A DNA stretch of 64,000 bases, from assembly GCF_053078305.1 (NCBI RefSeq), contig NZ_CP166879.1, one strand, 5' to 3'. This document shows, one piece after another, positions 37,654 to 61,503 of the stretch. The stretch's first letter is position 1, and each line of letters starts with the position of its first letter. A program made the position numbers and the translations under genes. The notes below the pieces were generated by a model. That model was not told the DNA's origin, did no database searches, and was given only the letters and a program-made list of their open reading frames with translations.

Positions 37654-38381
37654 TAAAAAAGTCCGTCTTCTGCTTACCTGTTTATTTTTCTATCTCTAAG
37701 AAAACATAATTAATATTATTTTTATGTGAGCTTATGCACAAAAATAACCAAGTATATTATCTTCTGGTAGAGATACAGGATACAGTTTGTAGGAGCTTTC
37801 TTTTTTGAACAATGATTTGCAGGACAGTTATGCTAAACTAGCGGAATCAGTATCACAACAATAAATGACTGTTCATACCTGAAATTTGAATTAACAGGCA
37901 TCATGAATGTCAATAGTCTAAGCGGTGACTACTTATATCGCTTGCATAAATACTAAACACTGACTAGAAAAGTATTGGATAACCCCGTCACTAAAAGTAA
38001 CGCTTCGGTTATTTGCTCGGAATGTATTAACGCCAAGATTGTTAGCCGTTACGCCTTATATCACTGGCGCTGACAAATGTTTCTTTTCTAATTTACTGAA
38101 CCGGCGCAGACACGCAGGAAAGCACGCCGGCACCGGTGTAATGCCAGTTCTAATCAATAAGAATGGAATGACGAATCAGTCAGGAAGGGATAACAACCCG
38201 CTGCTGAACGGAAGGTATCAGCAGGAAGATGAACGGGAATATCGCCAGCACCAAGGGCAGGGCCGGGTTCCACAATACCAGCGCTGGCATTTTGCACATT
38301 GCCAGCGTACCGGCATTACAACACGTTTCATGCTGCTGCCCCCAGGATTCCTCGATTCGTTGCTACATCCACTGCTCTACT

Positions 38382-38579
38382 TCACTTCCACTGCTCCACT
38401 TCACTTTTGTACCAGCGGCTGCTGCGCCCCAGTTTGATGGGTTTAGGGAAATGGCCTTCACTGATCAACTTGTAAAACCATTTGTCGGTCATACCGGTGA
38501 AACTGGTGATATAGTTCATGTCGATCAGGGAATTATCGGCACGCAGAAATACGCTGTCGTGGCTTGTTGTAGTCAACAT
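38382..38579 (-). CDS. alpA: AlpA-family phage/island regulatory protein (copy 1)
   Basis: 65 aa; C-terminal TDKWFYKLISEGHFPKPIKLGRSSRWYKSEVEQW closely parallels the second copy at 43373-43579. Confidence 0.65.
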   Translation of the reverse strand: MLTTTSHDSVFLRADNSLIDMNYITSFTGMTDKWFYKLISEGHFPKPIKLGRSSRWYKSEVEQWK

Positions 38580-38964
38580 GGTCAGAATGTCCTGTGAGAT
38601 TTATGAAGATTGTGCGAATGCGGGGAATCTGCTGAGCTGTGCTTTCAGAACTGGCCTGTTACGGGATACCAGGGATTACCGGCGGGGTAACGGGCTTCCG
38701 GATCATACACACCACGATTATCGCGGACAAAATCACTGAACGCCCATATCACCTCTTTAAGTATGTCTTCGCAGTCCGGTAAATGACGATCCAGCGCCAC
38801 ATCCCGGGTGGTACAGCTTTGATGCGCCCGGTGACACAAAGCCCGGATTGTTCCAGACATCCTGAATCAAACGCCCCAGATTAGGGGCGTCGAAATATGC
38901 CTCTCTGACCATTATATTCCGGCGTACAGGTAGCAGGTCTGAAGTGACAATGCGTCACCTGACG

Positions 38965-39531
38965 TTAAAAGTCACTACACCCAAGATGACGTTCAATGGC
39001 ACCATAGGATTCAATGTAAGCCCGGGCCGTCTGTTCCAGTACACCAGGCTCAGCGTTGTATGTGTTAGCTGCATCAAATACCAACGACAACACTTCAGGA
39101 TACACAACCAGATGTGTAATGGAGTTATCTTCACTCAATACTTTTCCCCACGCCTGCTCAATCAGATTTCTTAGAACCACCACCTCACGACTCTTACACC
39201 AGACATCGTTATTAAGTAGCAGCACCATAAGATAAGGAGTGGTATCGTTAGCCACAGCTTCCCTACTCCAGAGATAATATAAAGGGGTGGGCTCAACAGA
39301 TTGATCTTTACGTCGCTTACACTGCAAATATTCAGAAATGAGTCTATGCAGTTCACCAGTAAAATCAGCCATCAGAGAGGGAATGGCCTTATTAATACCC
39401 TGCCCTGGTATTAATTTAAATTGTAATAATTTAATTTCAGGATGTGTGGCTGCAGCCCGATACAGAGTTGCAAGGACACACTTTTGCCAGAGGGCGTTAC
39501 AGGAAAGCTTAACATTTGATTCTGTATACAT
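38965..39531 (-). CDS. YagK/YfjJ-family (inovirus Gp2-like) protein, copy 1
   Basis: 188 aa; shares the LLLL(N/V)(N/R)D(V/T)WC block with the copy at 41076-41645; typical of CP4-like islands. Confidence 0.6.
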   Translation of the reverse strand: MYTESNVKLSCNALWQKCVLATLYRAAATHPEIKLLQFKLIPGQGINKAIPSLMADFTGELHRLISEYLQCKRRKDQSVEPTPLYYLWSREAVANDTTPYLMVLLLNNDVWCKSREVVVLRNLIEQAWGKVLSEDNSITHLVVYPEVLSLVFDAANTYNAEPGVLEQTARAYIESYGAIERHLGCSDF

Positions 39532-40009
39532 AATAAATCACCTTACAGTTACAACAGGTCAAAAACCGCTGTAGCCAGAGTTACGCTGGCCTGATGCTTT
39601 AGCATCGGGCTTCGTCAAATAATCCAGAATCCAGACGTGCCAATAAGCGCTGATACTGCTCAGGGAAATCAGGAGCATTAATATCCTGGATGTCACGTCC
39701 ATTAGCAGGGAAATGAACAATGCAGCCCCCTGGATTAACTATGCAGAAATCATCCTGAGGCACTGATAAATACGGAGAGGACTCTCGCGTATGGTTGATT
39801 GACACCACAGTGCGAATTCGGCGGATGCGAGATCACGGTACGATTCCGCACCACACTACCAATCAATACCCCGGGTTTTATTCAGGTAAGCAGGACTGCG
39901 GATATCCGGTGTCGCGCCGTTGTGTCACGAACGGGGTGGGTGCGAAACACCGGATAAAATACAGGTTGGCAATACCTCTGAACGCCCTGCGCAGAGCGGG
40001 GATTTCGGA

Positions 40010-40816
40010 TTAAGTACTCGCACCTCCGCAGTCCTCAAACAAGTCTGGCTGGTAGCTGTAAACAGACTTCGTACATACCGCTCTGCAATAAATCCCCGTA
40101 CCACAGGCCTCACAGAACTTCTTCCCATGAAAAAACTGCTCACACATCACACAATGCCACTCCAGCACGACCGATAATGGCGATAAAAACATCGCCATAT
40201 CCTCAATGTAAGGGTGGGACTTTTCCGGATTCAGCACCACACAGTCCGCCTTCTGTTGCTCACTCAGGGCATGTAAATCATGCTCAAACCATGCCCCCTG
40301 AGCATCTGTCTGCAGAATCAACCGGCCATGGCAGGAAAGGCAGAAACAATGCCGGATATTTCTGCTGAGCGCAGAGTCGGCACTGATAATGTGTTCACCC
40401 GGCGTGATCCCCAGCCCCGTTTTTATACCGTTCATTCTGCTACCCCCCTCCTCACTGAAGCGTCCGGTCTGGCAGTGTGTGCAGTACCGCTCCCCATAAT
40501 AATCGTGGTGACATTGTCTGCAGTGCCAGCTGGCTTTACGCACCACGGGTAAGGCATCCGGGACGAATTGCTGCAGACGTTTAATCAACTGTATTTCTCT
40601 GCGTTCCGGCCTGACATAAGGACATTGCTGCGCGTGCTCCGTCAGCCCTTCGTCAGCGTGTTCAAACCAGGGCCGTTCAGTGTCGTATTGCGGGTGGTAT
40701 CTGAGTGCACTGCCGCAAAGGTGGCAGGTGTAGCGGTCGTAAGGCGCAGTCTGTGCGGTACGGGCCCCCGTCAGACGTCCGTTGCCATCAAGAGCGAGAA
40801 AGGATTTTGCGTACAT
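40010..40816 (-). CDS. cysteine-rich protein with multiple CxxC pairs (putative zinc-ribbon protein)
   Basis: 268 aa; at least eight CxxC pairs (CHLCG, CRQCHH, CTHCQ, CLSCHG, CVMCE, CEACG and others) with conserved spacing. Confidence 0.5.
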   Translation of the reverse strand: MYAKSFLALDGNGRLTGARTAQTAPYDRYTCHLCGSALRYHPQYDTERPWFEHADEGLTEHAQQCPYVRPERREIQLIKRLQQFVPDALPVVRKASWHCRQCHHDYYGERYCTHCQTGRFSEEGGSRMNGIKTGLGITPGEHIISADSALSRNIRHCFCLSCHGRLILQTDAQGAWFEHDLHALSEQQKADCVVLNPEKSHPYIEDMAMFLSPLSVVLEWHCVMCEQFFHGKKFCEACGTGIYCRAVCTKSVYSYQPDLFEDCGGAST

Positions 40817-41075
40817 AGTATATATTCCTCAGCCGCCAGACGACACGCAGGCAACAGCCGTCCAGGTACGGGCAGCGTGGTCAGGTGTGAATGGCGGTTC
40901 AGTTAAAATCTGGACTGGAGTTTGGGTAAAGCAGGCTGGTTGCTGTTACAGCACTGTGGTTGTCACACAATGGCCCACTGACGTAAAAAACAGTCAGTGG
41001 GCGAGTGGATACATCGTTGCCGCCAGACAACAACCCATACTTTTGGTTTGCCGGGTATTGGTGCGCCTGTCGTGT

Positions 41076-41645
41076 TCAACTCCGGCTACAGCCAAAATTG
41101 CGCTCACCGGTGCCGCGAGCTTTGGTATGCTCCTTCGCCAGATAGCCAGAACGTTCCAGCACCTGCTGAAAGCCGGTTTCATCATCGCGTTCCAGCCACA
41201 CCGCTGGCTTGTCAGGAAAATGTGCCAGCGTGTCATAACGTCCGGCATCCACTCCCAGGGCACTGCACCAGGCCTGTTTAATAATCCCGGCCAGTGACCC
41301 CGGAGCGCGGTAATCGCCGGCACGACACCAGGTATCCCGGTTGACCAGCAGCAGCAGGTGATAGTGTTTTTTGCCTTTAAGCTCCCCGAACTCCCGGGCC
41401 CAGGCGTAATGCAGGGTCGAGGAATGCACGCGTTTACCTTCCCGATGCTTACGTTTCTGGTAAGCGTCGATTCGGGCTTTCAGGGCATTGATGAAGCGGG
41501 ATATCACAGCCGCGTCCGTTGCTGCCGGTACATCCGGGAGACGCAGATCAACCCGCAATGCCGTCAGACGGGGATGAACATCCAGTGCGTGCCGCACCGT
41601 CTCACGAATACGTTGCTGCCAGAAGGGGTTGTATTTGTAGGTCAT
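41076..41645 (-). CDS. YagK/YfjJ-family (inovirus Gp2-like) protein, copy 2
   Basis: 189 aa; paralog of 38965-39531. Confidence 0.6.
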   Translation of the reverse strand: MTYKYNPFWQQRIRETVRHALDVHPRLTALRVDLRLPDVPAATDAAVISRFINALKARIDAYQKRKHREGKRVHSSTLHYAWAREFGELKGKKHYHLLLLVNRDTWCRAGDYRAPGSLAGIIKQAWCSALGVDAGRYDTLAHFPDKPAVWLERDDETGFQQVLERSGYLAKEHTKARGTGERNFGCSRS

Positions 41646-41849
41646 GGTTAAATCTCCGTATGGTTTCGTTCATACGGATTAACCACGCCGTAAAAAATGC
41701 GCAGAGTCCCTGAAGTGATCTCCAACCAGGCAATATCTCAGGCACTCTGAGATAACCCGAACGGTCGTCTCCGGACTGACGGTTGAATTTTCAGCGTTGT
41801 TTTTTTAATGTAAAAAACCGATTACGGATAAGGCTGTGAGGAGGGAGTT

Positions 41850-42050
41850 ATGGTGATACGCAAAAAGAAGTGCTGGGACTGTGGAAACGCGATTACTCAT
41901 AATACTGTGTGTTGCCCGTATTGTGGTTCTGTCGACCCCTTCGGCTATTACCGGAATACAGACCGTATCGTTACTATACTGCTGGCACTGATTATTGTGG
42001 TCCTGCTGACTACTGTCAGCGTCAGTGTGTATATACTGTGTAGCTGGTGA
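41850..42050 (+). CDS. small zinc-ribbon membrane protein
   Basis: 66 aa; CWDCG...CCPYCG motif followed by one hydrophobic helix; GAGGAGGGAG upstream. Confidence 0.4.
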   Translation: MVIRKKKCWDCGNAITHNTVCCPYCGSVDPFGYYRNTDRIVTILLALIIVVLLTTVSVSVYILCSW

Positions 42051-43372
42051 GATAACGGTTCATGTATCCCCTGAGCTGACAGTGTACCGGGTATATTAAG
42101 CGTAACCGACAGGTTCTCCTTCATACCATATTAAATTTTTCCAGGTATTGCCGCTGCCTTATTTCGTCTCATACAGGAAAACTCGTCTGGGTTTCTGACA
42201 AATACGTGAAACTCACAGCCCCTCAATATCAACCACACGCTGTAAGCCGGTAATACCTGAAAATCAGCCCATTACCGCCCACGCCTCCGGCACCATTCCC
42301 TTTAGATTTCGAATTCTTTGTTGTCGCTATACCGCTTAACGTTCCCGGTATTATCCTGGTTCCCGACAACAGGAACATATTCAGCTTTTAATAACCTGAG
42401 AAGAGCCAATAAGAATCACAAAGCGGATAACACCTGGCGCGATGCAGTTGTGATTACCGAACGCTCAGATGACATATTTCCAGACTGAAGCGGGAACACG
42501 ATCGTAAAGCTTGTTCATTGTCAGTTCTGCCAGCCAGTGATCAACCACAGAGTTGAAGGCTTCCAGTTCCGCAGAGGTAAGTTTATAACGCGTGTGGGAA
42601 ATCACTTTTTCCAGCGTCTCCCGGGATGAACAACGACGGAACTGCTTTGGTTTTAACTTCCATTAGCCTCTCATCACTTTATGCTGCAATTAACGTGATA
42701 CTGTCAGCATACCGCCAGACTGGCATTCTGGTACCCACCCCAAACTCATTACTCCCGAGCCACCACTTAACCGGTCTCTCAGACTGTCACTCACCAGGTC
42801 GGATATGTTTACCGCTCAGACGGATGCTTAATGCACTCTGTTCACGTACATTGCAGATACGTTTTATATACGCGGGTTATACGCCAGCTATCAGGGATAG
42901 CGCAGTCTGTTGCTACTGCGTTCTCATCATGCCCACTGATCACACTCACCGTGTTTATTTCACATATATGAACTCATGTATTTGATCTCATGTGTTTGAT
43001 CTCTCTTATATATTTATAATACCAATCAGACAGTCTTATCCCATCGGTGATACCTGTCACCTGCCCACCGGACACGGTCTGCCCCATCGTAACCGCCCCG
43101 TAAATAACTCTGCAATTATCAGAACGCCAGTTTTCCCCTCTTCCTCACGAAAATCATCCCTTCTTTATCGCGCGCGCGTGCGGAAGCATCGTTTCGTAAC
43201 AACCACCCGGCATACCGGTACGGCTCAGCCACCGTAACCTCCCCGTTTATCTCCTGGCGGTCACATTCCCGATTATTTTTTACGTTTCTCCCCGGTTGTT
43301 ATGCCGGTGAAGGTGGTGCGTTGTTTTCATGACCACACCGGCTGGTTTAACAACATCCGGAGGAACATTCTC

Positions 43373-43579
43373 ATGATCACCCCAGTTTCACTGATGGATG
43401 ACCAGATGGTCGACATGGCATTTATCACTCAACTGACCGGCCTGACCGATAAGTGGTTTTACAAACTCATCAAGGATGGTGACTTTCCTGCGCCCATCAA
43501 AATGGGCCGCAGCTCCCGATGGCTGAAAAGCGAAGTGGAAGCCTGGCTGCAGGCGCGTATTGCACAGTCCCGTCCGTAA
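43373..43579 (+). CDS. alpA: AlpA-family phage/island regulatory protein (copy 2)
   Basis: 68 aa from the ATG at 43373 with GGAGG upstream; TDKWFYKLIKDGDFPAPIKMGRSSRWLKSEVEAWL. Confidence 0.7.
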   Translation: MITPVSLMDDQMVDMAFITQLTGLTDKWFYKLIKDGDFPAPIKMGRSSRWLKSEVEAWLQARIAQSRP

Positions 43580-43659
43580 TTCTTAACCGTTCATCTGCAG
43601 CAGACGCAGTCTCCGGCCTGCCGGCGGCGTTCTGCTGCCTGTTATCCCCCGTGAGGAAT

Positions 43660-44268
43660 ATGAAAATGAAACCACAGTATCAGACCCGTTACGAGCTGCT
43701 CCACGAAAGCTACCAGAAATGGCTGACCGGCTTCACCCGGCACGCCGTATCCTGGGGCGTGTGTCATCCGAATATCTACTACTTCCATAATCTGACGCCC
43801 GGGTGGGTGTCATTCAATGGTGAAAAACCGGAGATTGCCATCGTACCCCAGAGTCTGCACCGGCTGATGTATGGTCCGGACAAACGGACCACGCCGCCCC
43901 TGGATGATGATCTGATAGTGAATTTATGCACCAGTGAACATCTGCTGGTTCATCATCCGATGCTGGAAGGCATTCTCCTGTCTGAATGTGAACGTCTGAG
44001 GCAGCGTTCGCTGGCAAATAAACTGATCAGCCTCTTCCGTCAGTTTGGTGGCACGGAGTTGCGCCTCAAACTGGTCTGGCTTTGCTGGCTTGATTTAATG
44101 ACCGGAAACTGCCTTGACGACTGGACGGAGAATCTGAAACGGAAATCAGAAAAAGAGCTGGAGGAATGGATCATCAACCGTCAGAAGCAGAGCGCAGCAC
44201 TGACGGATCTGATGGATCAGTACGTGCTCCTGGCATACCGCACAACGGTTGACGATAAGCGCACCTGA
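43660..44268 (+). CDS. hypothetical protein
   Basis: 202 aa from the ATG at 43660 with GAGGAA upstream; no family recognised. Confidence 0.45.
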   Translation: MKMKPQYQTRYELLHESYQKWLTGFTRHAVSWGVCHPNIYYFHNLTPGWVSFNGEKPEIAIVPQSLHRLMYGPDKRTTPPLDDDLIVNLCTSEHLLVHHPMLEGILLSECERLRQRSLANKLISLFRQFGGTELRLKLVWLCWLDLMTGNCLDDWTENLKRKSEKELEEWIINRQKQSAALTDLMDQYVLLAYRTTVDDKRT

Positions 44269-44589
44269 TGCCAGTTGTTTCAGGGAAGCTGGTATCCGGG
44301 CAGGGTGCCAGGGCTGACTGAACGGCCTGTCTGCCTGCCGTTTCGCTCTCCGTGCGTTCTGTCACACGCTGCACCTGAACGCCGGACTGCGGGCACGCAG
44401 ACAGGAAAGACGCAGGCTGGAACTTCTGACCGGCGGGTATCAGTTATATGCCTGTTGATTCATCACCACCACGCAGTTCCTGAGCTTTAGTTCATCACCG
44501 ATATTCATACATCTGAATATCGGTGATGAAATCCCCATAATAATCAATCATCTAAGTCTGAAGCATAATAGAGAAAAACTGCTCACCGG

Positions 44590-46143
44590 TTACTTCGCTC
44601 TCAGCTTATTGTAGTGATAACCCGAGGTAAAAATACCAGAGACATCAGACAACTTTAAACTGGCTATCTGGGGAAGCAGAACATACATGGTTTTTCCTTC
44701 CGGCACGACAGAAAGCCTGAACTGAGATTCAAGAATGTTCAGCAATGCGTTCAGTTTTTTCCTGTTTCTGAACCGGCCCGGGCCACACTGGAGAATATAA
44801 TTTTTCCTGACACGGGGCGGGCATTCTCCGCGGCACTCCTCAATGAGCCAGTCGAACAGCTCCTCGGCGTCCTTCTGCTGCAGTTCAGATTCATTAGGTA
44901 ACGCAAATAATTTTTTATATTCATCTGTGTACCACGAACTTATTACGACAGCAGACGTCATGATATCGGCAGAGATTTTCCCTTCACCATAGCTGAAATA
45001 CTGAAATAACGCTGCAATTCTTGCAATGTTTTCTGTTTTTTTTGAAACATGTCCCCGAAACGGGCTTAAGGGTCCGGAAGGGGATAAATCCTGCTCCAGA
45101 ACATTATAGTGCTCAATAAATATTTTTTGCGCTTCAGGCGAAAAATGCAGACAATACCGTTCATCCTCACTGGATTTTTCAATACTGCCTCTGGCCAGTT
45201 CCATTAATCGTTCATGAAATGCCGTTAATGATCCTCCCGGAATCACAGCTCCATTAATAAAGCGTTTCCCCTGCGTGGTTGCAGGTTTACTGATAAGACA
45301 ACGGGCAAGAAAACCACTGTCCCTGGCAACAGAACCTTTTCGCTCCATATATCGGTCAAAAAGACCGGGTTGCACCATGAGGGATAACGTCATTCTGGCA
45401 TTTTCAATCATCTGTTCGGGTTCATTCTTTCTGTCCACAGACAATACAGAGCCATCCCACATTTTGTTAATAAAAGGCAACTCAGACAGGGTATATCCAT
45501 CAAATATAATACCGGCTTCATCTGACATAATACCCACTGAACGCCATTTACCACAAAGCTGATTCTTAATTGCCGCAGTCGTGGCATCATTAAAAATGAA
45601 TTTATACCTCACAGGTTCTTCCGCACTGTTTTTCTGAAGTACTTCCAGTTGTCTGAGGGTTTCTGACTCATCCGCGCCTTTGCGGAGTTCTTTATTCAGT
45701 TTTGACAACAATGCTTTTTTCTGAGCCTTTAAAAGCTCTTCCTTGTTTTTCCAGACAGCCAGTTCACTTTTGTATCTGGAATATAACTGCATCTCCTGCT
45801 GGTACAGGGGCTTCATTAATAATTTGTCCACTGCGGTTTTTCGTTCTCCGGACTCGGCAAGCGTCAGGAAAAAAAGAGAGACCGGCCCCCGCAGTGTATT
45901 CAGTCTGCAGACATCAATCAGATTCTGGCAGACAAGTGAAACAGCGCCCAGGGCAGACGCTGCCACAAGCCCAAGGGGAGCCTGCGTAATTTGCTGAGCT
46001 TCAATAACGGCATCACGAATGAGTGGAGGCAGCGAACTCAGGGGAAACTCATCACAAGGCTGACCGAATGACATAGTAACCTCACTACACACAGATATAA
46101 AAGTACTGCAATTCTGGCTATTAATAGCAAAAATAGCAGTCAA
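44590..46143 (-). CDS. hypothetical protein (possibly YfjI-like island protein)
   Basis: 517 aa ORF (494 aa if started at the internal MSFGQP); convergent with the preceding gene; family unverified. Confidence 0.5.
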   Translation of the reverse strand: MTAIFAINSQNCSTFISVCSEVTMSFGQPCDEFPLSSLPPLIRDAVIEAQQITQAPLGLVAASALGAVSLVCQNLIDVCRLNTLRGPVSLFFLTLAESGERKTAVDKLLMKPLYQQEMQLYSRYKSELAVWKNKEELLKAQKKALLSKLNKELRKGADESETLRQLEVLQKNSAEEPVRYKFIFNDATTAAIKNQLCGKWRSVGIMSDEAGIIFDGYTLSELPFINKMWDGSVLSVDRKNEPEQMIENARMTLSLMVQPGLFDRYMERKGSVARDSGFLARCLISKPATTQGKRFINGAVIPGGSLTAFHERLMELARGSIEKSSEDERYCLHFSPEAQKIFIEHYNVLEQDLSPSGPLSPFRGHVSKKTENIARIAALFQYFSYGEGKISADIMTSAVVISSWYTDEYKKLFALPNESELQQKDAEELFDWLIEECRGECPPRVRKNYILQCGPGRFRNRKKLNALLNILESQFRLSVVPEGKTMYVLLPQIASLKLSDVSGIFTSGYHYNKLRAK

Positions 46144-47303
46144 ATCAATATGAGGTAAAAATTTTTGTTGCTTTAATGGTTAAATAATAACCACAGTGTG
46201 TTTTGCTGCTGAAGAAAGACAAAATGAATCTGTGTGTCCCCTCCTTCCCTTCAGAGCACATCCACTATTCAAATTTTACACAACCACGTACGAACAAAAA
46301 GCATCATCCCGGGTATTGCAGATACCGGTTTCCTGCCGGGAAGAATCATAAACAGAACACCGGGAATAACGCCTTCAGGAATCCCCCCCTCCTGAAGAAG
46401 AATAAAATAAAGAAGACTACAGTTCCTGCACTGAATGCTGAGTACAATATTCTATGGACAGGATGACATATTTATAAATAACAAAAACCATTTAATACTG
46501 ATACATCAATAAAATACTTCCTCCCTGCTGACGCAGATAAAATGCACCATTTTTTCTTCAAATACTTCTGTATAATCGCCAGCCAATGATGAGAATGGAT
46601 TAAAATAACACTTCTTCGACAAACACAAAAACAGCCTTCATTTTACATCATCATCCAGTTTCAGTTAACCCCGGACGAGCGACAGCGTTTCAGTACAGGA
46701 ATTAAAAGCCAGCTTTTGCTCAGTAAAAACACACTCAACTAATAATATCTCAGCAGATATTATCCTGACCAGGACACCTCACATTACTGAATTCTCTTCC
46801 GACAGTATCACTGCACAAATAAAAAAGAACTGGATAAATATTCAGACCGGAAGAATGGTGTCACAAAAGCATTTAATCATTACGCATGACCAGGAAGGGA
46901 AACACTTAACCACATGGTATCAACAGATATCATTACGTGTGCACTCTTATAAAAAACACACAGAAGAAGTAAGATAATTATAAACGTAAATTTAATATCT
47001 CCCACTGACATCTCCCCCACAATACACTGAAAAATACTCACAGCAGTAAACACAGACACACCTGATAATCATGCAGCCGATAAATATTTTCCCCTTTACG
47101 GAGAAATCAGCCTGCTGTTTAACAATAACGGCGTATTTTCATGGAAGGAGATCACCCAGTAACGGATAAGTCCTGATCTCCTTCATGTTAATACGCAACA
47201 ATCCCATCGATTCAAAACAATTTCAGACAGATATTATCTCCGTGAATCCCCCGCCACCTTTCCGGTGCGCGGGGTTTTGTCTTTTTTCACCGGGAATACA
47301 TGT

Positions 47304-48176
47304 ATGAATCCGTCTGATGCCATTGAGGCAATTGAAAAACCGCTCTCCTCCCTGCCTTACTCGCTTTCCCGTCACATCCTGGAACATCTGCGCAAACTCA
47401 CCCGTCACGAACCAGTGATTGGCATTATGGGTAAAAGCGGGGCCGGTAAATCCTCACTCTGTAATGCACTGTTTCAGGGGGAGGTCACCCCGGTCAGTGA
47501 TGTTCACACCGGCACCCGGGAAGTACGGCGCTTCCGTCTGAGTGGCCACGGTCACAGCATGGTTATCACTGACCTGCCCGGGGTGGGCGAGAGCCGGGAC
47601 AGGGATGCAGAGTATGAGGCCCTGTACCGTGACATTCTGCCTGAACTGGACCTGGTACTGTGGCTGATTAAAGCCGATGACCGTGCCCTGTCTGTGGATG
47701 AGTATTTCTGGCGACACATCCTGCACCGGGGACATCAGCGGGTACTGTTTGTGGTGACGCAGGCCGACAAAACGGAGCCCTGCCATGAATGGGATATGGC
47801 CGGTATTCAGCCTTCTCCTGCACAGGCACAGAATATTCGCGAAAAAACGGAGGCGGTATTCCGTCTGTTCCGGCCCGTACATCCGGTTGTGGCCGTATCG
47901 GCCCGCACCGGCTGGGAACTGGATACGCTGGTCAGTGCGCTCATGACAGCGCTTCCCGACCATGCCGCCAGTCCCCTGATGACCCGACTGCAGGACGAGC
48001 TGCGCACGGAATCTGTCCGGTCTCAGGCCCGTGAACAGTTTACCGGTGCGGTGGACCGGATATTTGACACGGCGGAGAGCGTCTGTATTGCCTCTGTTGC
48101 ACGCACGGTTCTGCGTGCCGTCCGTGACTCGGTGGTCTCTGTTGCCCGCGCTGTATGGAACTGGATTTTCTTCTGA
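47304..48176 (+). CDS. yeeP: YeeP/YkfA-family GTPase
   Basis: P-loop GKSGAGKSS and DxxG-type motif (DLPGVGE); track start is GTG, ATG at 47304 preferred; gene directly upstream of flu as in CP4-44. Confidence 0.7.
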   Translation: MNPSDAIEAIEKPLSSLPYSLSRHILEHLRKLTRHEPVIGIMGKSGAGKSSLCNALFQGEVTPVSDVHTGTREVRRFRLSGHGHSMVITDLPGVGESRDRDAEYEALYRDILPELDLVLWLIKADDRALSVDEYFWRHILHRGHQRVLFVVTQADKTEPCHEWDMAGIQPSPAQAQNIREKTEAVFRLFRPVHPVVAVSARTGWELDTLVSALMTALPDHAASPLMTRLQDELRTESVRSQAREQFTGAVDRIFDTAESVCIASVARTVLRAVRDSVVSVARAVWNWIFF

Positions 48177-48289
48177 ACACTCTGCCAGGGGAAATGCCTG
48201 ATTACATTGCGTTAACCAACTGAAAACATGACACAAACCCCTCATCCCCCTCCTGTTTCTCTTGCGTGACCGCTCTGCTGTCAATAGAA

Positions 48290-48335
48290 TAAAACGATCG
48301 ATAAAACAGGTATCGATCGTTACTATCGATCGTTT
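48290..48335. promoter_or_regulatory. antigen 43 phase-variation switch region (three GATC sites; expected OxyR-binding region)
   Basis: GATC at 48296, 48315 and 48328 in the sequence ACGATCGATAAAACAGGTATCGATCGTTACTATCGATCG, about 220-250 bp upstream of the flu start. Confidence 0.6.
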
Positions 48336-48548
48336 ATAGTGGTTAATGGTCTGCGAAAAGGCAGCTGAATCTCTTCATCATGCAGAACGGAATTGCACAC
48401 AACGGACTGATACTTCTCTGGCGGATGAGAGAGGGGAAGCATTTATGTCCGGGAAAAACCACTTTATCTGACCATGCTGTTTTGTACCTGCCGGTATCCA
48501 CATTTGTGGGTACCGGCTTTTTTATTCACCCTCTGTAAGGAAAAGCTG

Positions 48549-60649: not shown

Positions 60650-60913
60650 ATGCCTACCAGTGTATCCCTCAGTCCTTACTTTGAAACGTTTATCCGCGAA
60701 CAAATAGAAAGTGGTCGGTATAACAATACAAGTGAAGTCATTCGTGCCGGACTTCGTGCTCTGGAAGAACGGGAACAGCAGATAAAGCTTGAATCACTCC
60801 AGAGCGCCGTTACCGCAGGCATCAACAGCGGTGAAAGTAAAAGTGCTGAAGAGGTATTCGGGCGACTGACGCACAAATACAAAAAGATGGCAGAAGGTGA
60901 ACAGCCAATATGA
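60650..60913 (+). CDS. parD: ParD-family type II antitoxin
   Basis: 87 aa; ribbon-helix-helix-type N-terminus (SLSPYFETFIREQIESGRYNNTSEVIRAGLRALEE); ATGA overlap with the toxin gene. Confidence 0.75.
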   Translation: MPTSVSLSPYFETFIREQIESGRYNNTSEVIRAGLRALEEREQQIKLESLQSAVTAGINSGESKSAEEVFGRLTHKYKKMAEGEQPI

Positions 60914-61236
60914 AACTGACTGTTTCACCATTAGCAGAACACGATCTTGAAGCTATAGGTGACTGGATCGCTCAGGATAATCCTGTCCGTGCAATCAGTT
61001 TTACCGAAGAGCTTTACCAACAATGTCTGTTGATAGCCGAATCGCCAGTACTCTACAGAGAAAGACCCGAATTAGGGGCTGGGATCAGAGGTTGTTCGTA
61101 TGGTCGTTACCTTCTGCTGTTCAGGGTACTGGATACTGAAGTTCGTATCGAACGTATCGTTCATGGTTCCCGGGATATCAACAGGGTACTTGCAGAGCCA
61201 GACGACAAACCATCAGATCATTTCTGGCAGCCATAA
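60910..61236 (+). CDS. parE: ParE/RelE-family type II toxin
   Basis: 108 aa; ParE-like; translationally coupled to the upstream antitoxin. Confidence 0.75.
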   Translation: MKLTVSPLAEHDLEAIGDWIAQDNPVRAISFTEELYQQCLLIAESPVLYRERPELGAGIRGCSYGRYLLLFRVLDTEVRIERIVHGSRDINRVLAEPDDKPSDHFWQP

Positions 61237-61480
61237 ACAAAATCTGTGCGTTAACGCTCCCTAACACAGGTAGCCAGGTATTTTATAAATCTCTGTATTT
61301 TGTTGTTACTTCGATTCCGCAATTCAGCATATCGAACCAGACAAAATGATTACAGCAAAGCACAAAAAAGAGGGATTATAGCGTCAAAAGAATTCGAATT
61401 GCACATGGGGGCCTCATTGGTGGCCTCGAAAACAACAAAGACAAAACAATCAATACAAAACAATTGGTTATATAACCAGT

Positions 61481-61503
61481 TTCATTCCGAGTCCGGGCAC
61501 CAA
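61481..61503 (+). repeat. 3' remnant of tRNA-Phe (pheU), putative island attachment-site repeat
   Basis: ATTCCGAGTCCGGGCACCA at 61484-61502 matches the last 19 nt of E. coli tRNA-Phe; the upstream sequence is not tRNA-like; it lies 617 bp before the cadC start, the pheU-cadC spacing I recall for K-12. Confidence 0.6.

Follow-up and report, generated by a model that had tools for sequence, protein, structure and literature searches.

We analyzed positions 38380-46150 of a 64,000-nucleotide stretch of DNA (the window; contig NZ_CP166879.1 of NCBI RefSeq assembly GCF_053078305.1), using a gene inventory that was built from a six-frame listing of open reading frames (ORFs) and from family scans. 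The comparisons support well that this region is a central control segment, and that the large island to which it belongs is inserted at pheU (tRNA-Phe) and has a backbone of the P4-integrase type resembling that of CP4-44. We hold the identity and the architecture of the segment, as the control region of a CP4-44-like pheU island, with high confidence, while the complete explanation, which adds a mechanism of excision, replication and mobilisation to this identity and architecture, is on the whole fairly probable. As a genomic object the segment is ordinary and already known, with its sequence, gene calls and family names all public. Positions 38000-46500 shared 99.8% identity with E. coli 04-00955, in which the genes were already annotated by RefSeq as YfjI family, inovirus Gp2 family, YagK/YfjJ domain-containing, putative zinc ribbon and Hha/YmoA family proteins, and all five proteins that were looked up had exact public copies, the number of contigs ranging from 114 to 942 per protein. 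A coverage of at least 80% was reached for this whole region in 93 of 5426 complete genomes and for its right half (42100-46300) in 1072, including the Nissle derivative SYNB1934. The left half (38300-42100) was present in 104 and is thus about ten times rarer than the right half.

From left to right, the window contained type VI secretion system (T6SS) and microcin H47 cargo, the control segment, a conserved backbone (GTPase, Ag43, DUF932, antirestriction, RadC, CbeA/CbtA, DUF4942 and ParDE genes), a repeat of the pheU end and cadC. The repeat, in which 23 nt of the tRNA-Phe (pheU/pheV) 3' end are copied (61480-61502, plus strand), matched TTCGATTCCGAGTCCGGGCACCA with two mismatches, where zero such matches were expected by chance. 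It was located between the ParD/ParE toxin-antitoxin pair (60650-61236) and cadC (62119-63657), about 620 nt upstream of the latter, and marks the distal direct repeat and end of the island. The ParDE-cadC junction was also present in RM10410. In 04-00955 the near-identical island abutted the kps capsule genes instead of cadC.

Since the repeat marks the distal end, the integrase is expected to the left of the window, and by analogy with related elements pheU should likewise lie beyond the left window edge. No tRNA was detected within the 64-kb window by a tRNA scan, and no integrase gene was present in 38380-46150. An earlier reading of this DNA, made from the letters alone (the sequence-only reading), had noted the missing integrase correctly and had described the region as a degenerate CP4-like backbone in which two modules were fused or rearranged. 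The backbone is indeed CP4-like, contains two gene sets and has decayed in places (a YagK remnant, an hha-like gene and a gene fusion, all detailed below), but the missing integrase indicates neither degeneracy nor fusion. In an intact compact relative (locus L020) the order was tRNA-Leu(CAA), P4-type integrase, cargo, the zinc-ribbon, AlpA and predicted HUH nuclease genes, and backbone. There the whole cargo lies between the integrase and the HUH-AlpA-zinc-ribbon genes, so that the absence of an integrase from the segment is what this layout would lead one to expect.

The right reference for the segment was CP4-44, the Ag43 (flu) island, with which the window element shared collinear DNA as well as the same order of zinc-ribbon, Gp2, hha, alpA, 200-amino-acid (aa) protein, yfjI, GTPase, Ag43 and backbone genes. 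At the CP4-44 locus of strain M2 (cobU-yeeA), window positions 41064-48178 were matched at 97.7% over 7117 bases, and the match went on through the backbone to 59713, with a second block of 95.7% over 8910 bases. From 41064 on, the segment was collinear with a single known prophage remnant, CP4-44, a result that runs against the sequence-only reading. The K-12 copy of CP4-44 matched the window from 47624 (yeeP) to 59713 at 83-98% and lacked everything to the left of yeeP. The order zinc-ribbon, Gp2, 66-aa ORF, hha, alpA, 200-aa gene, convergent yfjI, GTPase and Ag43 recurred in SYNB1934, and a large part of this order was shared by UTI89 and AHB3. Insertion sequences interrupted the segment in UTI89, SYNB1934 and M2, cutting it to the left of the zinc-ribbon genes. 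In contrast to CP4-44, which sits between cobU and yeeA, the window element ends at the pheU repeat and cadC and is thus a relative at another site; it further differs by an extra left module (alpA1, a 188-aa YagK gene and a YagK remnant) and by its T6SS and microcin cargo.

The window was also compared with CP4-57 and CP4-6 of K-12, against which the sequence-only reading had suggested a dot-plot. When the plot was run, similarity was only patchy, with 66-75% DNA identity, the control segment was not collinear and the gene order differed. On the other hand, the proteins were related (YfjI 53%, YfjJ/YagK 33-37% and GTPase 49% identical), and the DUF932, antirestriction, RadC and toxin-antitoxin genes of the backbone were shared. 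The AlpA of K-12 was 27% identical, and homologues of the zinc-ribbon and 200-aa proteins were absent from K-12. Unlike in the window, alpA, yfjI and yfjJ of CP4-57 are co-directional and adjoin the integrase. With regard to phage satellites (phage-inducible chromosomal islands and P4-like elements), for which an integrase-alpA-primase/replicase module plus capsid or packaging-redirection genes would be expected, an AlpA gene and a helicase-family gene were noted here, and a PHROGs scan of nine proteins detected no primase, capsid or packaging family.

Two alpA-like genes in opposite orientation, as previously claimed, were confirmed with PF05930, both scoring above its curated cut-off of 21 bits. 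The first, alpA1 (38382-38579, minus strand), encodes a 65-aa helix-turn-helix (HTH) protein of the AlpA family, of excisionase or transcription activator type (39.4 bits, E = 5.4e-10; PHROG match 'excisionase and transcriptional regulator'), and adjoins the microcin H47 cargo cluster. The second, alpA2 (43373-43579, plus strand), encodes a 68-aa HTH protein of the same family (34.5 bits, E = 1.8e-8) and is the first gene of the alpA2/200-aa pair. The two were 68% identical as proteins and 72% as DNA, and alpA2 was 75% identical to the AlpA of locus L009. The ratio of nonsynonymous to synonymous substitution rates (dN/dS) was 0.47 for alpA1 against AHB3 and 0.09-0.12 for alpA2. A remnant of the 200-aa gene was sought downstream of alpA1 and none was found. 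In the tellurite/Iha island of O157:H7 (L007, 7230-9617), alpA1 and an adjacent gene fragment were joined to the mch glycosyltransferase at 99.4% identity; this match ended at window position 38975, and the 188-aa YagK and zinc-ribbon genes were missing there. In a Salmonella locus (L024, 7080-7648), two AlpA genes lay side by side in one element.

The two YagK/YfjJ-like paralogs in the same orientation were likewise confirmed, both on the minus strand and both above the curated cut-off of PF11726 (25.8 bits). The 189-aa protein (41076-41645), also named inovirus Gp2, matched the full profile with 154.9 bits, while the match of the 188-aa protein (38965-39531) was partial (39.5 bits, E = 7e-10). 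With identities of 27% for this pair and 68% for the AlpA pair, the copies are not recent duplicates, and judged from their sequences both pairs are ancient paralogues. A frameshifted C-terminal remnant of a third, N-terminally truncated YagK-like gene was found at 39568-39769 (minus strand) by tblastn with K-12 YagK, residues 144-184 (45%) and 183-204 (55%) of which matched in two frames; at the equivalent of 39568-39769 RefSeq calls a 65-aa 'YagK/YfjJ domain-containing protein'. The truncation of this gene shows at least one deletion between the two AlpA/YagK sets.

On the basis of its HUH and YxxK motifs and its modelled fold, the 189-aa protein is best read as a predicted HUH-type single-strand DNA nuclease of Rep-like kind. 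Among 24 aligned members of the family, the positions H94-Y95-H96 and Y168-L-A-K171 were nearly invariant. The AlphaFold2 model (mean predicted local distance difference test score, pLDDT, 86.6) exhibited the characteristic fold of HUH endonucleases, with the HUH motif in a predicted strand (93-102) and Tyr168 at the end of a helix (156-170). The best structural matches were viral and plasmid replication initiators and transposases, not relaxases, and a sub-threshold Pfam match to the Rep ORF2/G2P family was obtained. Predicted fold, HUH and YxxK were shared with HUH replication initiators (the nuclease domain of parvovirus NS1/Rep, plasmid RepB and SIRV1 ORF119), but the 189-aa protein was only 10-18% identical to these and has no fused helicase. 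In contrast, the neighbouring 188-aa paralogue carried 'PYL' in place of HUH and no Tyr-x-x-Lys in the alignment and is probably not catalytic; it was present as an exact copy on 942 contigs and had a dN/dS of 0.29.

Orthologues of the 189-aa protein were traced in Pectobacterium, Klebsiella, Serratia, Cedecea, Rouxiella and Salmonella, and in five of these six genera they directly preceded an AlpA gene on the same strand, with a 132-aa ORF intervening in Salmonella. By locus, an HUH or HUH-like gene was directly upstream of AlpA in eight of nine cases from at least six named genera, the exception being Salmonella L024. Locus L012 was too short to show the gene position next to AlpA, and in the diverged locus L009 the gene upstream of AlpA had no Pfam match and was assigned by its LRVDF, HIH and YLSK motifs only. 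In these elements a zinc-ribbon gene often followed AlpA and was in turn followed by variable cargo, while the other side was occupied by GTPase, WYL, DUF932, RadC, CbeA/CbtA and DUF4942 genes and a ParE toxin pair. The compact tRNA-Leu islands of Klebsiella and relatives (L020) resembled the window in their integrase, cargo, zinc-ribbon/AlpA/HUH genes and a backbone ending in DUF4942 and a ParE pair, but differed in being small, in carrying anti-phage defence cargo, and in having one AlpA, one HUH and neither a yfjI nor a 200-aa gene; L009 and L011 do contain members of the 200-aa family. Four loci (L020, L017, L023 and L016) contained anti-phage defence genes as cargo from the HUH-AlpA(-zinc-ribbon) genes to the integrase (type I restriction-modification with TIR, OLD nuclease with UvrD helicase, methyltransferase with helicase, and Dpd), a position that is held in the window by the microcin and T6SS clusters. 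Integrase, AlpA, RadC and a Gp2-like protein also form the core of the Pseudomonas tmRNA islands, the only ones for which transfer by jumbo phages has been reported (bioRxiv 10.1101/2024.08.29.610337).

The 268-aa ORF between the two YagK/YfjJ-family genes (40010-40816, minus strand) was placed correctly by the sequence-only reading, which had described it as one protein with at least eight CxxC pairs; six CxxC motifs and one CxxxC were counted. As judged from the alignments, this ORF is two tandem overlapping genes fused in frame by one additional G and not a single ancestral gene. Its first unit (40436-40816, minus strand; a 127-aa gene elsewhere) and its second unit (40010-40432, minus strand; a 141-aa gene elsewhere) each consisted of DUF7828 (PF25165, E = 6.3e-31 and 2.8e-22, respectively) and Zn_ribbon_11 (PF11682, E = 1e-8 and 1.4e-14), and the two halves were 29% identical. 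At the junction (a C-run at 40443-40448 on the plus strand) the DNA alignment showed GGGGGG in the window and in 04-00955 and GGGGG in AHB3, and it is this extra G that brings both zinc-ribbon halves into one frame. The 127- and 141-aa genes were separate in AHB3, where stop and start overlap in ATGA, and also in UTI89. Among the 1523 complete genomes having the junction, three matched it at 99% or more, and the other records listed were one base shorter; the exact fused protein was on record on 114 contigs. Both units had dN/dS values of 0.12-0.23 (second unit 0.17 against AHB3). A possible likeness of DUF7828 to the N-terminal zinc finger of CoiA was dropped, as no such Pfam match was obtained at E <= 10, and a literature search found no paper mentioning DUF7828 or Zn_ribbon_11. 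In E. coli, a 279-aa protein (P0016) combined the YagK/YfjJ domain, DUF7828 and Zn_ribbon_11 in one chain; whether it arose as a natural fusion or through another frameshift, it links the HUH with the zinc-ribbon genes.

The convergent genes of 202 and 517 aa that had been reported next to the second alpA gene were confirmed, as a 200/202-aa gene on the plus and a 494/517-aa gene on the minus strand. The sequence-only reading had left both unassigned, which holds for the smaller one. This 200-aa protein (43666-44268; 'Aec62' in one UniRef entry), linked to AlpA by gene context, belonged to no family in Pfam (even at E <= 10), NCBIfam, PHROGs or PADLOC, and an exhaustive search of 1.84 billion representatives returned only 113 relatives, mostly fragments. 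Its model was confident (pLDDT 86.9), mostly helical and without a match in the PDB or among viral models. In each of the three other loci examined, which belong to distant elements, homologues with 30-50% identity came directly after an AlpA gene, with a zinc-ribbon gene in between in one and two tandem 200-aa paralogues in another. With its gene located behind an AlpA gene at all loci inspected, the 200-aa protein is by this context a backbone partner of AlpA and not cargo. The adjacent genes of this family in locus L011 (7273-8525) were 42% and 32% identical to that of the window. A relation to K-12 YagJ was tested and not found.

The 517-aa ORF, on the other hand, could be assigned as a yfjI homologue. 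Its product belongs to the DUF3987 family of MCM-like (superfamily 6, SF6) helicases (PF13148, 320.9 bits, E = 1.5e-95) and matched PHROG 2373 'DNA helicase' (E = 3e-82). The 517-aa version starts at an upstream TTG (46143); since the alignment with K-12 YfjI (53% identical) begins only at residue 24, the product is taken as 494 aa (44590-46074, minus strand). Walker-type motifs were GERKT (residue 76), which we take to be an MCM-like Walker A, and SDEAG (residue 184). Profile analysis has placed DUF3987 among the MCM-like SF6 helicases (PMC4889955), and a member of this family, AgaPH, unwinds DNA 5' to 3' (PMC11724360). YfjI is a member of the DUF3987 helicase family, and its gene belongs to the backbone rather than the cargo. 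The convergence of the 200-aa gene and yfjI behind alpA2 recurs across genomes and is therefore part of the fixed backbone. In CP4-6 of K-12 (L003, 30430-30627), a short yfjI-like remnant (47% over 66 residues) was located beside ykgS and IS1C, which suggests from sequence similarity that CP4-6 once carried yfjI. The suggested scan with hidden Markov models of defence systems was run with PADLOC and gave no match for the 268-, 200- and 517-aa proteins; its matches nearby were confined to a weak HTH for the AlpA proteins and a generic GTPase for the neighbouring GTPase. Sequence searches of solved structures, run with four of the proteins (189, 200, 268 and 494 aa) and with a family profile for the first of them, yielded chance-level matches only, and no functional study of YfjI, YfjJ or YagK was found in the literature.

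AlpA of K-12 has been reported to switch on IntA of CP4-57 and thereby to trigger excision. For the segment in the window we tentatively propose a role in excision control combined with replication or mobilisation. The AlpA proteins would switch on the distant integrase, leading to excision of the island; the 189-aa HUH protein would then make a site-specific, single-strand nick in the excised circle, and the YfjI helicase would unwind from the nick. The outcome could be either rolling-circle copying, which would protect the circle against loss, or single-stranded DNA that is passed to the transfer or packaging machinery of a helper. The zinc-ribbon and 200-aa proteins, which share an operon with AlpA in relatives, would for this reason be accessory DNA-binding or regulatory partners. 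At a wider scale, it is conceivable but doubtful that the HUH-AlpA pair constitutes an uncharacterised module of excision-coupled replication or mobilisation common to P4-integrase islands across Enterobacterales and sitting always at the border of variable cargo and conserved backbone. DUF7828 zinc-ribbon and 200-aa proteins and, in E. coli, YfjI may be extra parts of such a module, which is perhaps also present in the Pseudomonas tmRNA islands moved by jumbo phages.

Several observations weigh against this proposal. No origin or nick site was identified in the segment. The yfjI gene was not present in the compact elements of Klebsiella, Pectobacterium, Serratia, Cedecea, Rouxiella and Salmonella, so that the HUH protein does not everywhere have the helicase as a partner. 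From K-12 CP4-44 the segment has been lost in its entirety, and it is hence dispensable to the host. With the integrase and pheU outside the window, completeness of the element is inferred by analogy. Finally, some genes here are damaged, namely the third YagK gene, the fused zinc-ribbon pair and an hha-like gene of the H-NS co-regulator family (42465-42664, minus strand; Pfam HHA, E = 1.8e-25 over 42468-42644). The latter has lost its in-frame start, the ATG being in a different frame and a stop codon preceding the Hha frame; RefSeq calls a 49-aa protein at this locus, and the copies in SYNB1934 and UTI89 are marked partial.

Alternatively, the two gene sets could have arisen by tandem accretion, in which two once-independent control modules were joined and the inner integrase and end were deleted. 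The left module would then consist of alpA1, the 188-aa YagK gene and the truncated YagK gene and would have arrived with the microcin/T6SS cargo, while the right one would be of CP4-44 type, and their junction could lie near 39770-40010. Such a history is possible but somewhat unlikely. Consistent with it, the N-terminally truncated third YagK gene would mark the deletion junction, the left module was found in only about a tenth as many genomes as the right one (104 versus 1072), alpA1 of O157:H7 goes with remnants of the microcin cluster without the rest of the region, and the gene sets have diverged as deeply (27% and 68%) as those of different lineages would. However, AHB3 has both modules in the same order beside entirely different cargo, and the tandem AlpA genes of Salmonella L024 and the tandem 200-aa genes of L011, each within a single element, argue that paralogue expansion is common. 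In addition, the insertion-sequence cuts in UTI89, SYNB1934 and M2 hide the ancestral left end of CP4-44, and the missing integrase is expected for this layout anyway.

A second alternative concerns the function of the HUH protein, which could be a mobilisation relaxase that nicks an origin of transfer and leaves it to helper conjugation to move the single strand, with no replication involved. Many integrative mobilisable elements use Rep-like relaxases, the modelled HUH fold of the 189-aa protein has a single conserved Tyr, and the neighbouring backbone contains many genes of the sort that typically occupy leading regions of conjugative DNA (antirestriction, DUF932 and RadC). We nevertheless regard this as unlikely, given that the window contained neither an origin of transfer nor genes for a coupling protein or mating-pair formation, that replication initiators and transposases were the best structural matches, and that YfjI belongs to a family of replicative helicases (PMC4889955).

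The segment could also be inert debris, a decaying remnant that is kept by linkage to useful cargo such as the microcin, T6SS and Ag43 genes. The zinc-ribbon frameshift fusion, the hha-like gene without a start, the truncated YagK gene, the loss of the whole segment in K-12 and the insertion sequences in the UTI89, SYNB1934 and M2 copies would all fit such decay. In contrast, dN/dS was 0.09-0.47 for every intact gene of the segment, which indicates purifying selection, exact copies of the proteins are on hundreds of contigs, and the HUH-AlpA pairing is kept across genera, making this explanation quite improbable. That the 202- and 517-aa genes occupy a cargo position, for instance as an anti-phage defence pair inserted beside alpA2, is very improbable, since despite their convergence next to an AlpA gene, the lack of a known family for the 200-aa protein and the defence cargo found next to the module in other genera, neither protein had a PADLOC match, the larger ORF is yfjI, a backbone gene in CP4-57 too, members of the 200-aa family share the AlpA operon at each of the three other loci examined, and the arrangement is canonical backbone that is collinear with M2 CP4-44 and fixed, not variable, in more than 1000 genomes (1072 of 5426).

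Several smaller features accompanied these genes. Upstream of the 189-aa gene, its leader contained a hairpin (41650-41690, minus strand; RNA fold -15.2 kcal/mol, z = -3.2) with a GGAG ribosome-binding site in the 3' arm; this hairpin could act in translational control or provide a site for a protein or for nicking. Comparable hairpins preceded the orthologues in other genera with z <= -2.3 in five of eight loci and were weak in three; the position of the 5' arm in E. coli differed from that in other genera, and TATGAAC was conserved in or beside the loop. A search for 9-mers common to the upstream regions of all YagK-type genes revealed nothing general. Divergent from the HUH gene, a 66-aa ORF (41850-42050, plus strand) encodes an N-terminal CxxC...CxxC zinc ribbon with a weak Zn_ribbon_3 match and a hydrophobic C-terminal tail; it was annotated in 04-00955, UTI89 and SYNB1934 and had a dN/dS of 0.15 against UTI89. 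Next to alpA1, a frameshifted gene fragment (38645-38915, minus strand), annotated by RefSeq in 04-00955 as a frameshifted, N-terminally incomplete hypothetical, did not match Pfam in either reading frame.

Where the 200-aa gene and yfjI converge, the intergenic DNA contained a perfect inverted repeat (44491-44530; arms of 17 nt, loop of 6 nt), which was AT-rich and not a typical terminator. This repeat was confined to the close relatives 04-00955 and M2, being absent from the SYNB1934, UTI89 and AHB3 loci, and was rejected as an origin or conserved functional site because of this restriction. The 1.1 kb between the divergent yfjI and GTPase (YeeP-like) genes (46144-47264) was AT-rich (38.4% GC versus 48.3% for the window), contained no long ORF and matched no Rfam family; its minus strand held four of the 14 promoter-like sites in 38000-47400, a total that was not above the expectation from shuffling. 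The sole Rfam match in the window was an IS102 RNA (48294-48530, plus strand; 74.6 bits) just upstream of the Ag43 gene, in the position of IsrC in K-12 CP4-44, and the DNA alignment to K-12 and M2 broke across this site (48178-48485).

The value of this analysis is corrective: the lead of an unassigned cargo pair is removed as false, the 268-aa protein is a frameshift fusion, and the absence of an integrase is expected. The genes of the segment are under purifying selection and flank the site used for virulence or defence cargo in these islands. Some novelty attaches only to the view that they make up a replication or mobilisation module that has so far gone unstudied in CP4-type islands. If the HUH-AlpA pair is such a module, 'cryptic prophages' of this kind would form a class of their own, that of islands able to replicate themselves or to be mobilised, and not dead phages.

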